Origin: Octopus vulgaris
Lineage: Eukaryota
Length of the DNA: 64,000 nt
Assembly (NCBI GenBank): GCA_951406725.2
Contig: OX597837.1
Coordinates: 43,958,001-44,022,000 of the forward strand
Direction: 5' to 3'
Shown here in pieces: positions 293 to 58,407 of this stretch (its first letter is position 1; the number at the start of each line of letters is the position of its first letter). The notes under the pieces are model-generated. The model did not search any database, was not told where the DNA came from, and saw only the letters and a program-made list of their open reading frames with translations. The translations under genes and the position numbers were made by a program.

Positions 293-506
293 CGTTTCCA
301 ATGTTAACAAAGAATGTAAGGATTGTTCAGCCGGATCAAAGGAATAAACGTGATCCACGGTTACTTTCAATGATACCATGACCGGTTGCAAGTAGTGCAT
401 TTGCGGGGCAACATTTTTGTCGTAATCTCGAAATAAGGCTCCCAGGGTTTGGGTAATCTCCTCGTAGGCTCGGTTTTGACGACCATCGGAGAGGTTTGCT
501 GTCAAC
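293..506 (-). CDS. Gene B exon 2: Cys-loop/AChBP-like ligand-binding domain N-terminus; gene continues beyond left edge
   Basis: Acceptor tctctttgatcgcag at 507, donor ACG|gtaagt at 292, phases 2 to 0. Encodes LTANLSDGRQNRAYEEITQTLGALFRDYDKNVAPQ..PVMV..DHVYSFD..EQSLHSLLTLET, the LF.DYDK..P..PV.V pattern of pLGIC N-termini. 28/60 identical, ungapped, to gene A exon 2. Confidence 0.9.
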
Positions 507-31778: not shown

Positions 31779-31843
31779 CCGAGAAGGACACAGACGAAGA
31801 GGGTTAAAGACACCCAGTTATAGAGGGTCACGGGTGGCTGCAT
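31779..31843 (-). CDS. Gene B exon 1 coding part: signal peptide MQPPVTLYNWVSLTLFVCVLLG
   Basis: aaaATG context, hydrophobic core, ends CTC GG|gtaggt (phase 2). This matches the phase-2 acceptor at 506 and gives ...FVCVLL-G-LTANLSDG/RQ. Implies a ~31.3 kb intron; no transcript evidence available. Confidence 0.72.
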
Positions 31844-33728: not shown

Positions 33729-33828
33729 NNNNNNNNNNNNNNNNNNNNNNNNNNNNNNNNNNNNNNNNNNNNNNNNNNNNNNNNNNNNNNNNNNNNNNNN
33801 NNNNNNNNNNNNNNNNNNNNNNNNNNNN
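33729..33828. other. Assembly gap (100 N)
   Basis: Run of exactly 100 N. Confidence 1.
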
Positions 33829-46361: not shown

Positions 46362-46401
46362 TTTATTTCTTTTTAATCTATTTATTGCATTCTACTTTAT
46401 T
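46362..46401 (-). terminator. Candidate polyadenylation signals of gene A
   Basis: Three AATAAA hexamers on the minus strand (tttatt at 46362, 46381, 46396), 64-100 nt after the stop. AT-rich context lowers specificity. Confidence 0.4.
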
Positions 46402-46464
46402 ACCATTTCCTTTAATTGGAATTTACAACAACAGAAAAATAAATAAAATAGAAAATGTGGGATT

Positions 46465-46897
46465 TCAATATTGTGTCGGCACAACGGCCACACAAGATAA
46501 GACCATCAACCAAATACTCGTGGATAACCTAAGGGCTTTGTTGGCGTGAGAGAAACCTTCATTGTCTTTAGTCAATCTGATGCTACCGACAGCGGTTGGG
46601 ATATTAGTGGGAGTAGAATCGCTGGTTGAAGGCGATCTCGTAGAATGAAATTCGGTTTTTCTGCTAACATTCCAGAAGTGGTTGCTAAACGATTCGGCCA
46701 CGGAAAATCTTGTCAGCTGCAGTTGTTCCTCGGAACTTTTGAATGGAGTCGAAGCGAAAAGATAGCTACACGCATGGGTTTCATTAGTGAGGGCGGTGGG
46801 ACAAAATGTCTTCACAGAAACCTTCCGGTGCCAAACTAGGTTGCCTTGGTATTCGAGGTAGATTGTGTGCTCTTCTAAATCTTCAGGCTGAGCTAGA
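46465..46897 (-). CDS. Gene A terminal exon: rest of ligand-binding domain with Cys-loop, plus hydrophobic C-terminal tail and stop
   Basis: Acceptor tactttcag in phase 2; 143 codons to TGA. G.LVW, KTFCPTALTNETHACSYLFAS (Cys-loop), SNHFW, SIRLTK (beta10), then DNEGFSHANKALRLSTSIWLMVLSCVAVVPTQY*. Confidence 0.9.
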
Positions 46898-46961
46898 CTG
46901 AAAGTACAAAATATATACGGAATATATATACAGTATTTATAGACAGCCCAATCGTAGTACA

Positions 46962-47032
<71 letters not shown>

Positions 47033-47142
47033 ACAGACACAGACACACACACACACACACAGACATACACACATTTACTCACGCACACACATAAAATTTT
47101 CATTTAATGACATAATATAATAGATATATATACTTATACGTA

Positions 47143-47924
47143 GGGCGGCGAGCTGGCAGAAACGTTAGCACGCCGGGCGAAATGCTTAGCGGTATTTCGT
47201 CTGTCGTTACGTTCTGAGTTCAAATTCCGCCGAGGTCGACTTTGCCTTTTATCCTTTCGGGGTCGATAAATTAAGTACCAGTTACGCACTGGGGTCGATG
47301 TAAACGACTTAATACCTATGTCTGTCCTTGTTTGTCCCCTCTATGTTTAGCCCCTTGTGGGTAATAAAGAAATAGGTATTTCGTCTGCCGCTATGTTCTG
47401 AGTTCAAATTCCACCGAGGTCAACTTTGCCTTTCATCCTTTCAGGGTCGATTAAATAAATACCAGTTACGCACTGGGGTCGATATAATCGACTTAATCCA
47501 TTTGTCAGTCATTGTTTGTCCCCTCTGTGTTTAGCCCCTTGTGGGTAGTAAAGAAATAGGTATTTCGTCTGCCGCTACGTTCTGAGTTCAAATTCCACCG
47601 AGGTCAACTTTGCCTTTCATCCTTTCAGGGTCGATTAAATAAATACCAGTTACGCACTGGGGTCGATATAATCGACTTAATCCATTTGTCAGTCATTGTT
47701 TGTCCCCTCTGTGTTTAGCCCTTGTGGGTAGTAAAGAAATAGGTATTTCGTCTGCCGCTACGTTCTGAGTTCAAATTCCGCCGAGGTCGACTTTGCCTTT
47801 CATCCTATCAGGGTTGCTTAAATAAGTACCAGTTACGCACTGGGGTCGATGTAATCGACTTAATCCGTTTGTCTGTCCTTGTTTGTCCTTTCTATGTTTA
47901 GACCCTTGTGGGCAATAAAGAAAT
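47143..47924 (+). mobile_element. SINE family 1 tetramer (~184 bp period)
   Basis: Units start ggtatttcgtctg at 47191, 47375, 47559, 47742; flanked by atatatacttata direct repeats. Confidence 0.9.
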
Positions 47925-48740
47925 ATATATACTTATAAGTGCTCGGTTTAGTTTACCACTAAAACACCGGCTTGAACTCTAAAGGCGGTGTTGAAATTGC
48001 CTATCAAAAATTGTTAAAAGTGGCTCACCATTGAGAGGGCAGATATATCGTAGAAATGGAGAATGAACAAGCCCTATATTTATGTGCGGTGGGGTGTCCA
48101 AATTAACGTGGATGTTTCGTTAGAAAACAGAACACTACGTTGTTTACCCAAGGAGAACGTCTCATGGTTGCGTGGTGCAAAAAATAAGCAAATCCAATGA
48201 TCTAAATAGGAGTGTTTTTGTGCACCACAAGTCCTTATGAGAGGTTCTCTCATGGTAAATAATGCTCAAGGATACATGTTGGCCGGTTCACGAATCGAAA
48301 CCACAATCTTATTTCTTTATTGCCCACAAGGGGCTAAACGAAGAGGGAACAAACAAGGACAGACAAACGGATTAAGTCGATTATATCGACCCCAGGGCGT
48401 GACTGGTATTTATTTAATCGACCCCGAAAGGATGAAAGGCAAAGTTGACCTCGGCGGAATTTGAACTCAGAACGTAGCGGCAAACGAATACCGCTAAACA
48501 TTTTACCCGGCGTGCTAACGTTTCTGCCAGCGATCATGAGTATAATGCCCGAACCACTACGCCACGCACCTCCAAGATACAATAAATACCGAACTTAAAA
48601 TGAATCTTGGGGTCTATTCTTTCGACTGAAAATTCTTCAAGTTGATGCTCCAGTATGAGCGCAGACAAATGAGTAAAACGAGTAAAAAGTAATAAGATAG
48701 AAGATACTTTGATAATTTGATGGAATTATCAGAAACTTAC

Positions 48741-48841
48741 CCGTTCAGAAGAAATAGGTTAGGGGTCCAAACCCTTGCTTTTTGAGTATAGATACTTTGC
48801 AGTCTTTGAGGGTACCATGCAAGACGTCTATCAGACCATCT
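48741..48841 (-). CDS. Gene A exon 3 (101 nt, absent from ORF track)
   Basis: Acceptor ttttttcaag, donor AAC GG|gtaagt, phases 0 to 2. RWSDRRLAWYPQRLQSIYTQKARVWTPNLFLLNG matches the W.D.RL.W and W.P.(I/L)..N signatures of pLGICs. Confidence 0.93.
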
Positions 48842-48916
48842 CTTGAAAAAAAATGACGAGAGAGAAAAATTGAAATAGTCTTAGATGTATCACGTTATCA
48901 GGTGAATGGGGTTGTT

Positions 48917-49361
48917 GGATCATTTCGGTTTGAACGGCAGTTTTTAACATAATGTCTAGGTAACTAAAAAAATTTTAACTTCGTATACTGGTAGAATGTG
49001 TTTATAAAACATCTTTTTTTCTTGGCTTTATTGAGAAAATTCTATAGTTTGTAAGATATTTGCTGTTTTTTTTACTTCAATTTCTGCAATTTCAACCAAT
49101 CAATGACCGTCTATTGAGGTGAAAACATTCTGTAACGTATGAATATGTCCCCCGTTTAAGAAACAGACTGGGTTTATTTACATTTCTGAAGAAAAAGAGA
49201 TACCCTTCCCCCCACCCCTAACTCTAGCCCTAACCTTAACCCTAACTAACCCTAACCCAAAAACAGATTGAAATGCAATAGATCGATACTAGGGTCATAA
49301 TTATGGGTGACAATTTCATATGACACCGCTAGAAAAACTGACTTTCAAACCGAAAAGATCC
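48917..49361. mobile_element. MITE with ~29 bp imperfect TIRs and 8 bp TSD, in gene A intron
   Basis: GGATCATTTCGGTTTGAACGGCAGTTTTT...AAAAACTGACTTTCAAACCGAAAAGATCC; flanks gggttgtt/gggttgtc; internal CCCTAA-like repeats. Confidence 0.8.
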
Positions 49362-50014
49362 GGGTTGTCTTTTATGAATTTAATGGAATGTAAATAATCG
49401 CTGATTGACGAATGAAATGGAAGAAGGACAGAGAGGAGGAAGATGAGGCGGAGGAAGAAGAGAAATAGGGAAGAAAAGGTGAAGAAGTAAAGGAATAGAA
49501 GCAGCAGCAGCGGTGGTGGTGGATTAGAAGAAGAAGGGGAAGGTGAAGAAGAAGAAGAAGAAGAAGAAGAAGAGAAGAAGAAGAAGAAGAAGAAGAAGAA
49601 GAAGAAGAAGGGGAAGGTGGAAGAAGAAGAAGAAGAAGAAGAAGAAGAAGAAGAAGAAGGGGAAGGTGGAAGAAGAAGAAGGGGAAGGTGGAAGAAGAAG
49701 AAGAAGAAGAAGAAGAAGGGGAAGGTGGAAGAAGAAGAAGGGGAAGGTGGAAGAAGAAGAAGGGGAAGGTGGAAGAAGAAGAAGAAGAAGAAGAAGAAGA
49801 AGAAGAAGAAGAAGAAGAAGAAGAAGAAGAAGAAGAAGAAGAAGAAGAATGAGGAAGAAGAAGTAGAAGAAGAAGATGGGGAATATGGAAGACGAAGAAG
49901 GAGAAGAAGAAGAACCGAGAAAGAATTTCAGAATCCATAAGAAGTGTGATGCCATCTTGTGTAAGATAAACATATGAAGAACATAGTTAATTAAAATGGT
50001 TAATTAAAACTGAC

Positions 50015-50231
50015 CAGGCTAAGAGAGAGTAATGAGTGCAGCATTTGATTGGTGACGTCGAAGTTGTATATGTGGTCCAGAGTGGCCTCCATCCTCACCA
50101 GAACCGGTTCCGTGTGGTTGGGTTGAGGCCGGATGCGCTTGTCATATTCGACGAACATCGTGTTGTAAATCTGGGACGCTTCTTCGTAGGCGCGCACTTC
50201 TCGGTTCGACGACGTCGCTCCGACCATGATC
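50015..50231 (-). CDS. Gene A exon 2 (first exon found): Cys-loop/AChBP-like ligand-binding domain N-terminus
   Basis: Acceptor ttactgcag at 50232, donor CTG|gtcagt at 50014, phases 2 to 0. IMVGATSSNREVRAYEEASQIYNTMFVEYDKRIRPQPNHTEPVLVRMEATLDHIYNFDVTNQMLHSLLSLSL contains YDKRIRP, PV.V and D..NQ.L motifs. Confidence 0.92.
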
Positions 50232-56816: not shown

Positions 56817-56871
<55 letters not shown>

Positions 56872-56872
<1 letters not shown>

Positions 56873-58407
56873 CTCCCAGTCAACTTGAAAGAGGGGGTAA
56901 TATGCCCTATCCATAAGGGAGGTAGCAGAGCAGATGCTAAAAATTATAGGCCTATCTCTCTGACCTCACACATCAGCAAAGTCATGGAACGAATAGTCCG
57001 TAAGAAACTAATCATGTTCCTTGAAGAAAATGACTTGCTGTCTGACACCCAGCATGGATTTCGACCAGGTAGAGGCTGCCTAACACAGCTCCTGCAACAC
57101 TATGACTGGGTGTTGAAACAGCTACTAAATGGCTCAAATGTGGATGTAATATATCTCGACTTTGCAAAAGCCTTTGATAAAGTCGACCATGGTATGATCT
57201 GTCACAAACTGCGTGGTCTCGGCATAGGCGGGAAACTTGGAGAGTGGCTGCACAACTTCCTAAAAGACAGAAAACAGGCAGTTGTGAGCAATGGAGCCAC
57301 CTCCAAGGAAACGCAAATAACAAGCGGTGTCCCACAGGGCACTGTCTTGGGGCCACTGATGTTCATAGTGGCCCTTTCAGACATGCCTTCAGTTGCTACG
57401 ATGACCACCTCTTGCTAGCTATGCAGATGACACAAAAGTCTCCCACGCAATACAAAACCCTGAAAATATTGCGCATCTGCAACATGAGCTGGACACAATA
57501 TACAGGTGGGCTGAGGACAACAACATGCAGTTTAATGCAGGTAAGTTCCAGGCCCTGCGCTATTGGCACACAAAGGTAAATGACGTGAAGACTGGATACA
57601 CTGGCCCAGGAAGAATTGCAATCCCTGAGTCAAAATCAGTGCGTGACCTGGGCATTGACATGAGCAATGATGCGTCTTTCCAAATGCATATTGCTAATCT
57701 GGTGATAAAATGCAGACGGCTAGCTGGATGGATTCTCCGAACTTTCAGAACAAGAGAGAAGGAGACACTGATGGTCCTATGGAAAACATTCGTCCTCAGC
57801 CGCTTGGACTACTGCTCCCAACTTTGGTCACCACACAATATAAAACAAACAGCAGAACTCGAAGCAATTCAGAGAAGCTACACAAAGAAAATCGTCTCAA
57901 TGCAAAATATCAGCTACTGGGAAAGACTGAAGGTATTAAACCTCTTCTCCCTGGAGCGGAGGCGGGAGAGATATGCAGTGATATACATCTGGAAAATCCT
58001 GGAGGGTCTTGTCCCAAACTATGGCATTCAAAGTTACTCCAACCGCAGAACGGGCGCCGCTGCGTGGTGCCAAGGATTCCAACATCACCATCAAAATACA
58101 GGTCCAGATACTGCAACAGCTTGGGTTTCAGAGGACCACAGCTCTTTAACATCCTCCCTAAATGCCTGAGAGACTTACATGGTGTGGATGTGGGTTTCTT
58201 TAAAACTAAACTGGATCTCTTCTTGTTGGGAGTCCCAGATGAACCTACCTCACGACAGGGGACGCGGATGCGGGCAGCAGCATCGAACTCCCTTGTTGAT
58301 CAAGTGCCACGTATCAGAGGTGGATTCACAAACTAGTGTAGCTCATTCAGCGGTGGTGCCCCAGCATGGCCGCGGCCTTCGGGCTAAAACATTTTTAAGG
58401 ATTTAAG

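Follow-up and report, generated by a model that had tools for sequence, protein, structure and literature searches.

The locus presented here raises the question of what is made by an octopus gene that encodes the extracellular domain of a Cys-loop receptor and ends shortly after it. To our knowledge, Cys-loop proteins have so far been described as four-helix channels or as soluble AChBP/ACCBP. The initial annotation had read three phase-compatible exons in the window (the whole 64,000-nt stretch of Octopus vulgaris DNA analyzed here) as covering the extracellular domain of a pentameric ligand-gated ion channel, and this was borne out: all three lie on the minus strand with AG/GT boundaries and compatible phases, and each matches PF02931. 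Exon 2 is located at 50015..50231, is bounded by splice sites and encodes the end of the signal region, helix alpha1 (E38-E39-A40-x-Q42) and beta1-beta2 (E = 1.4e-6); it is identical to the NCBI model P0005 across the aligned part. Exon 3, at 48741..48841, carries the WSD...WTP core of the domain (E = 2.5e-5) and is joined to exon 4 in transcripts. The coding part of exon 4 (46465..46897, E = 3.5e-3) comprises beta5-beta10, the linker, the hydrophobic tail and the stop. The signal peptide is encoded by a 65-nt exon 1 located outside the window, 28.5 kb upstream of exon 2 (G000:C24:44038760-44038824). The complete CDS of four exons has 816 nt and encodes a 271 aa protein, in which a polar linker connects the Cys-loop extracellular domain to a hydrophobic C-terminus of 12 residues. 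PF02931, the alpha1 plus beta-sandwich layout and the cysteines of the Cys-loop disulfide place this domain in the Cys-loop superfamily. As was also claimed at the outset, 33 residues (D239-Y271) follow beta10 before the stop codon (46465-46467, minus strand), and AATAAA signals are located 3' of it at 46401, 46386 and 46367 on the same strand. The 3' UTR occupies 46362..46464 (minus strand), with AATAAA at 46386-46381 and the transcript end near 46362-46370.

Transcript contigs from six of eight runs (six studies) span the last exon unbroken, from 46898 to 46362-46370. The exon-3 junction is visible in five of these six runs and a poly(A)-type tail in the sixth, the RNA status of the runs being judged solely by the splice junction. 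The transcript 3' end falls within an A-rich stretch and might therefore stem from internal priming. Splicing of exon 4 into downstream M1-M4 exons, which had been raised as the counter-case to a channel-less protein, was seen in no contig of the eight runs; the contigs stop just past the stop codon. A scan of 264 kb likewise gave no M1-M3 exon, its best transmembrane-profile match being a poly-Val microsatellite and not a channel exon. Full-channel orthologues, which would have made the stop a premature one, were not found either, as none of the 29 aligned family rows matches the PF02932 channel domain. The four-helix channel domain M1-M4 that defines a pentameric ligand-gated ion channel is absent from the octopus protein, and the data support a stop codon that is not premature and a protein that is channel-less. 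That the locus is a channel gene truncated or in decay, or that its annotation is an artefact, is most improbable and largely refuted. The NCBI model of the locus, P0005, does have a different C-terminal end, and the database models of a few relatives (P0013, P0025, P0168 and P0169) also end with other C-termini; against this stand the spliced transcripts of six studies, none with the P0005-type joint (absent from all eight runs, in contigs that drop rare variants), the intact ORF and same architecture in three molluscan classes, and the lack of channel exons in 264 kb. The P0005 model of the locus is mis-spliced.

The protein resembles AChBP (Lymnaea, Aplysia, Biomphalaria) and ACCBP in having a signal peptide, a stand-alone PF02931 domain without M1-M4 and a shortened hydrophilic Cys-loop, but it differs from AChBP in its 33 residues past beta10, which add a linker and a hydrophobic signal, and in lacking the aromatic box and the loop C disulfide. 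The aromatic box of Ls-AChBP is given in PMC3956608 as Y89, W143, Y185 and W53. In the octopus protein, loop A (exon 3) has Leu126 in place of Tyr, and loop C (residues 213-228, 46597..46644, minus strand) is Ser/Thr/Pro-rich, with no Tyr-x-Cys-Cys in the alignment to canonical alpha nAChRs. The Cys-loop itself (C160-x10-C171, 46768..46803, minus strand) bears an N-glycosylation sequon and lacks the FPFD channel-coupling motif. The same holds for the family: both Cys-loop cysteines are present in 27 of 27 aligned rows and the core W-x-D and W-x-P are retained, while the loop A Tyr, loop B Trp, loop D Trp and loop C Cys-Cys occur in none of them, and the Pro column of the [FY]PFD motif is a gap in 25 of 27 (the target having C-x10-C, not C-x13-C). 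The pre-M1 Arg and the Cys-loop F/D, which contact the membrane domain, are lost. Compared with nAChR subunits (PF02931 plus PF02932), the extracellular domain is homologous, with best PDB matches at E about 1e-26, but identity is only 18-25% and the channel domain, FPFD, the pre-M1 Arg cluster and Y-x-C-C are all missing. No natural AChBP is found among the best 60 PDB matches of the family profile. Because the aromatic box, the vicinal cysteines and FPFD are lost, and helix alpha1 shows family-specific conservation, the protein is read as neither an AChBP nor an acetylcholine scavenger, and the "AChBP-like ligand scavenger" of the initial annotation is not supported in the acetylcholine sense.

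Phylogeny leads to the same separation. The relatives form one clade of 26 rows with a long stem (SH-aLRT 100), its placement resting on quick trees, and this clade stands apart both from the AChBP-like proteins and from the octopus chemotactile receptors, both among the groups against which a comparison had been proposed. Its named members belong to cephalopods (octopods), gastropods and bivalves, and include Aplysia and Biomphalaria proteins. The chemotactile receptors CRT1 and CRB1 are likewise nAChR-derived and without a canonical acetylcholine site, but each is a single long, intronless ORF that encodes C-x13-C and M1-M4, and they cluster on a different contig, whereas the present gene is split into four exons and has relatives across the molluscs. 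Two further channel-less ectodomains of putative lipid-anchor type, P0100 and P0051, fall outside the clade, and P0100 retains most of the acetylcholine site. Searching with P0012 and P0031 revealed no third family copy in the octopus genome, and copy counts are to be read as lower bounds. No description of this channel-less family was found in the literature searched. Jiao et al. (2019; PMC6896357, Table 1) counted "LBD-TM" nAChR models in molluscs and annelids, seven of them in O. bimaculoides; these have a ligand-binding domain with one hydrophobic segment and may include family members, although theirs is a gene-model count, GPI does not appear in the main text, and their tree took LBD-NTM genes only (PMC6896357). 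Trees restricted to full channels drop the family members. Since automatic annotation at present labels the members as nAChR or 5-HT3 subunits, and one model of this locus is mis-spliced, molluscan receptor counts are inflated.

The proposal of a third architecture with a GPI-like tail, single-pass insertion being less likely, is supported by the sequence: a terminal hydrophobic stretch is kept in 22 of the 26 family rows, while its sequence and the linker length are unconserved. In the octopus protein, the hydrophobic core of the C-terminal signal has 12 residues (I256-V267, 46480..46515, minus strand), with Kyte-Doolittle values of 2.65 in an 11-residue and 1.89 in a 19-residue window, and is followed by four uncharged residues without a basic cytosolic tail. 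The predicted omega site is Asn247 (46540..46542, minus strand), with Ala at omega+2. Concerning the small-residue spacer GFSHANKA noted earlier, N247-K-A holds up and "SHA" does not; the latter is unconserved in P0004, which makes N247-K-A the better omega candidate. In four octopod proteins (the target, P0004, P0010 and P0171), N-K-A/G is found at the same distance from the C-terminus, 24 residues. Hydropathy gives an N-terminal signal peptide and no internal transmembrane segment, as expected of a GPI-type protein, and N247-K-A is followed by a spacer and then by I256-V267. The family tails match the pattern that the relevant part of PMC3497722 gives for GPI signals, namely small omega/omega+2 residues, a short polar spacer and a hydrophobic C-terminus of variable sequence. 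A crude tail screen, with thresholds chosen after the family had been seen, was passed by 21 of 26 family rows and by 387 of 3137 (12%) random ORF ends; because a single such tail appears in 12% of random ends, the weight rests on the 21 rows. A hydrophobic tail together with a small omega/omega+2 pair was found in 17/26 rows versus 4.9% of random ORF ends, five of the 22 tailed rows failing this full screen. Taken alone, GPI attachment of the octopus protein is predicted as rather probable.

It is unlikely that the tail instead remains uncleaved as a single transmembrane anchor (type I, with hardly any cytosolic tail), perhaps one left by the decay of an M1 helix. The 19-residue hydropathy value and an uncharged C-terminal run of 20 residues, enough to span the membrane, would suit such an anchor, as would the "LBD-TM" models counted in molluscs and the AF2 model of the orthologue P0010, which shows the alpha1 plus beta-sandwich layout and a C-terminal helix of 16 residues (pLDDT 85.4); in some rows, among them P0019, the stretch reaches transmembrane length and basic residues come after it. 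However, several family cores have just 11-14 residues, neither a cytosolic nor a positive-inside motif is conserved, and the tails match the M1 profile no better than their own shuffles (86 of 200 reached the score of the target), with a median of 0.0 against 44.7 bits for true M1s. An M1 remnant, prompted by a few linker residues of P0004, was rejected, since none of 28 tails beat all 200 shuffles; the best were P0052 (8/200) and P0028 (10/200).

We tentatively favor a GPI-anchored, acetylcholine-blind, non-conducting surface ectodomain, forming AChBP-like rings and working by protein contacts. The protein would be cut at Asn247 and then GPI-anchored on the outer cell surface, the ectodomains may assemble into AChBP-like rings, and the conserved membrane-distal face of helix alpha1 would contact protein partners, suggesting a co-receptor or docking protein and not a transmitter sink. 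Seven of the 14 family-specific conserved positions fall at residues 38-50, in alpha1, although His49-Lys50 of the family is absent from the octopus protein and the conservation could instead reflect folding or self-assembly. Rather doubtful is a GPI-anchored surface sink or presenter of a non-cholinergic small molecule (e.g., a hydrophobic environmental or host compound) bound in a remodelled inter-subunit pocket. Chemotactile receptors, which also lack the loop B Trp and Cys-Cys, bind hydrophobic molecules and not acetylcholine, according to the portion of PMC11526382 drawn upon, and variable pockets could stem from diversifying selection; yet the family lies outside their clade, the target has small or polar residues at its pocket columns (S91, L126, T178 and the Ser/Thr-rich loop C), and one pocket residue is shared in the family, the Asp at the loop D position (17/27), the other columns being variable. 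Quite improbable is a role as an accessory subunit of nAChRs or chemotactile receptors, in which the protein would co-assemble with their extracellular domains or cap them, and would damp or tune gating or surface expression. In its favor, the fold and the residues for core assembly are kept, an engineered AChBP is able to dock onto a pore domain (as indicated in PMC3423370) and Lynx1 exemplifies nAChR modulators that are GPI-anchored but differ in fold; against it, the residues facing the membrane domain (Cys-loop F/D and pre-M1 Arg) are lost, identity to channels is ~20% and linker lengths are very different.

Next to this gene lies a tandem paralogue, P0007, with its signal-peptide exon 1 at 31779..31843 and exon 2 at 293..506 (both minus strand), exons 3-4 being located just past the window start (L002). 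Its ORF stops at beta10 without a tail, as in AChBPs, and it is predicted from its sequence to be a secreted, soluble counterpart that would have arisen by tail loss in octopods. Lynx1/Ly6 proteins, of an unrelated three-finger fold, offer a functional analogy only, with GPI-anchored and secreted sister forms at the cell surface in the sources consulted. The paralogue and the mollusc-wide family had been missed by the initial annotation, whose channel-less third architecture stands without the acetylcholine scavenging. For the family as a whole, the balance tips slightly toward a third Cys-loop branch predating the cephalopod/gastropod/bivalve split and made of GPI-anchored recognition or co-receptor ectodomains, which in octopods would exist as an anchored and a secreted twin, lipid anchoring having arisen more than once. 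A conserved, expressed, membrane-tethered and pore-less class would mean that the Cys-loop fold also serves the cell surface as neither channel nor scavenger, a role open to direct test in the Aplysia and Biomphalaria members and in the anchored/secreted pair of octopods. The family further offers a natural experiment for separating the extracellular-domain residues that serve gating from those that serve assembly.

Concerning other structure resources, the ESM Atlas returned generic PF02931 clusters alone, under 0.9. A three-copy complex prediction of P0010 residues 30-236, for which the alignment was not used, scored 0.00 and is uninformative either way, as is a fold of P0006, a model of the paralogue, from an alignment of five rows (pLDDT 33).

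The target gene lies on the minus strand and consists of four exons. The window covers G000:C24:43958001-44022000. The signal-peptide exon of the gene is located outside it (C24:44038760-44038824), followed by exon 2 (50015-50231), exon 3 (48741-48841) and the coding part of exon 4 (46465-46897). Exons 2, 3 and 4 each have canonical splice sites, a compatible phase and a match to the extracellular domain PF02931, in agreement with the initial annotation, which had read an extracellular domain from three phase-compatible exons. The spliced CDS of 816 nt encodes a 271 aa protein with three N-glycosylation sequons. Past strand beta10, whose last residue is K238, come 33 more residues, as had also been proposed. 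They comprise a polar linker, then N247-K-A and a short spacer, and finally a hydrophobic core of 12 residues (I256-V267), with four uncharged residues between it and the stop. The NCBI Octopus vulgaris model at this locus (P0005, CAI9740374.1) is identical, wherever aligned, to exons 1 and 2 and to the exon sequence next to them. Intron 1 holds fragmented LINE-type reverse-transcriptase ORFs, judged from translation (56819-58336, plus strand).

Transcripts were checked in 8 of the 24 listed sequencing runs. Six runs, from six study codes, gave one gap-free contig each, spanning 46898 to 46362-46370 and carrying 0-2 differences; exon-3 sequence continues past 46898 in five of these, and the sixth bears a T14 tail at 46362, ~20 nt beyond an AATAAA, at an A-rich 3' end that internal priming may explain. 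The other two runs look like genomic DNA. No joint within exon 4, where splicing to downstream M1-M4 exons had been considered, was present among the joints listed for the eight runs, whose contigs drop rare isoforms. P0005 removes most of exon 4 (46409-46820), losing the Cys-loop and the tail; because no such joint is listed in any run, this shortened ending is unsupported. The stop is genuine, and a truncation or artefact is highly improbable. An M1-M3 profile made from 48 channels and run on 8254 ORFs over 264 kb around the target matched only microsatellite ORFs (best E-value = 0.0035, poly-Val). The same profile recovers 17 of 20 pLGIC-locus ORFs of this genome, many of which belonged to its training set.

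A profile run against 1.84 billion representatives returned 1121 matches at E ≤ 0.001, and the best-scoring group among the best 150 of them comprises proteins of 220-330 aa with the plan of the target. Named members occur in cephalopods (Octopus, Argonauta), gastropods (Patella, Batillaria, Pomacea, Babylonia, Arion, Biomphalaria, Bradybaena, Physella, Aplysia, Elysia) and bivalves (Potamilus, Dreissena, Ylistrum, Pinctada). PF02931 was matched in 29/29 aligned family rows and the channel domain PF02932 in 0/29. A second search (4883 candidates of 78-581 aa) gave six matches, the sole channel-bearing one being a canonical alpha nAChR, identified by motifs and left out of the tree; channel-bearing orthologues, once a concern, were not encountered in either set. 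In a quick, midpoint-rooted 82-row tree of extracellular domains, with rows taken from the same search and without a named AChBP, 26 rows form a single branch (SH-aLRT 100, length 0.76), which excludes the channels, ten chemotactile-type receptors from octopus and four AChBP-like proteins that are soluble; separate comparisons anchored P0069 and P0034 to AChBPs. These sequences indicate that we are dealing with a family rather than an isolated gene. The target is a Cys-loop-superfamily domain, yet not a channel, an AChBP or a chemotactile receptor. The ten references derive from more than 20 chemotactile-receptor-like, single-ORF PF02931 loci (~400 aa) clustered at G000:C15:56.9-57.4 Mb.

In the usual loop and nAChR residue nomenclature, canonical alpha subunits carry a Tyr in loop A, a Trp in each of loops B and D and a Cys-Cys in loop C; each of these is absent from 27/27 family rows. 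L126, T178 and S91 stand in the target instead, and its loop C is rich in Ser/Thr; the loop C tyrosine columns, which are poorly aligned, hold Tyr in 2/27 and 5/27 rows. Acetylcholine is bound in Ls-AChBP by these loop residues, according to PMC3956608. Of the earlier interpretation, an architecture that is neither channel nor AChBP stands, but ligand scavenging is not supported as far as acetylcholine is concerned. An unlikely alternative that deserves mention is that the protein takes up a non-cholinergic small molecule as a sink. FPFD is missing from the Cys-loop, which reads C-x10-C, and the pre-M1 Arg has largely disappeared, losses that would be expected from long evolution without a pore. 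Helix alpha1 (residues 38-50) holds 7 of the 14 family-specific conserved positions, and the target retains E38, E39, A40, Q42 and T46 there, without H49-K50. A role as accessory subunit of channels appears rather improbable. For P0010, the orthologue from Argonauta, which shares 54% identity with the target, the AlphaFold2 model shows the expected helix/strand order and a C-terminal helix (pLDDT 85.4, pTM 0.76).

A terminal hydrophobic stretch is present in 22/26 family rows, together with a polar linker in 21/26 and additionally with a small omega/omega+2 pair in 17/26; with these author-chosen thresholds, fixed after the family was seen, of 3137 ORF ends drawn at random in the region, 387 pass the stretch and linker screen and 153 also the omega-pair screen. 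Near-copies, isoforms and fragments were omitted from the count (P0004-6, P0008-9, P0014, P0020, P0025, P0031, P0047, P0161-4, P0168-71, P0173). Four rows lack the tail: P0007 and P0011, which are the octopod paralogues, as well as P0037 and P0013, the last with a model that carries a long unrelated C-terminus. Three omitted proteins, P0025, P0168 and P0169, share the ectodomain of tailed members and have other C-termini without a tail; they are candidates for mis-models or for alternative splicing to soluble forms. Family tails resemble M1 no better than their shuffles (M1 profile). They are alike in character without a common sequence, which fits the GPI signal, described as consensus-free in PMC3497722. 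In the target, P0004, P0010 and P0171, the distance between N-K-A/G and the C-terminus is exactly 24 residues. Against GPI, the uncharged run of the target measures 20 residues and the tail of P0019 is transmembrane-like, and for these reasons we infer, rather than assert, that the target is probably GPI-anchored; an uncleaved single-pass anchor seems improbable.

The tail-less tandem paralogue P0007, 36% identical to the target, has the same four-exon plan on the minus strand (31779-31843 and 293-506, then 1439-2682 of L002, the sequence beyond the window start that holds exons 3-4); it starts at 31843 and ends just past the window start. An assembly gap of 100 N (33729-33828) lies between the two genes. 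The paralogue stops at beta10 in octopus and Argonauta records and is predicted to be a secreted, acetylcholine-blind AChBP-like protein. The pair is also present in Argonauta, where P0171 is a second tailed copy. Both octopod copies have the tailed fragment P0031 as their sister (SH-aLRT 93 and 83), a position from which the tail would most simply be ancestral and lost in the paralogue. Our tentative mechanism, to which we give a little less than an even chance, is that the signal peptide would direct the target into the ER, cleavage at N247 would be followed by GPI transfer, and the protein, likely an AChBP-like ring, would be displayed on the outer leaflet and act via protein contact, not acetylcholine capture, with the secreted twin as soluble counterpart.

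A full-text literature search, with most subscription papers beyond its reach, found no description of a GPI-anchored or tethered Cys-loop ectodomain. In the parts available of each source, 'LBD-TM' gene models are tabulated without comment on GPI (PMC6896357), 15 molluscan clades are resolved with none named channel-less, although the supplements could contain family sequences (PMC13174522), AChBP/ACCBP are described as soluble only (PMC3423370, PMC4569296) and chemotactile receptors as channels (PMC11526382). Outside the family, the unnamed database proteins P0100 (261 aa) and P0051 (257 aa), both from the profile search, are channel-less ectodomains with GPI-like tails. P0100 retains the Trp of loops B and D and the Tyr-x-Cys-Cys of loop C, which makes it a candidate for a true, membrane-tethered acetylcholine binder that arose independently.
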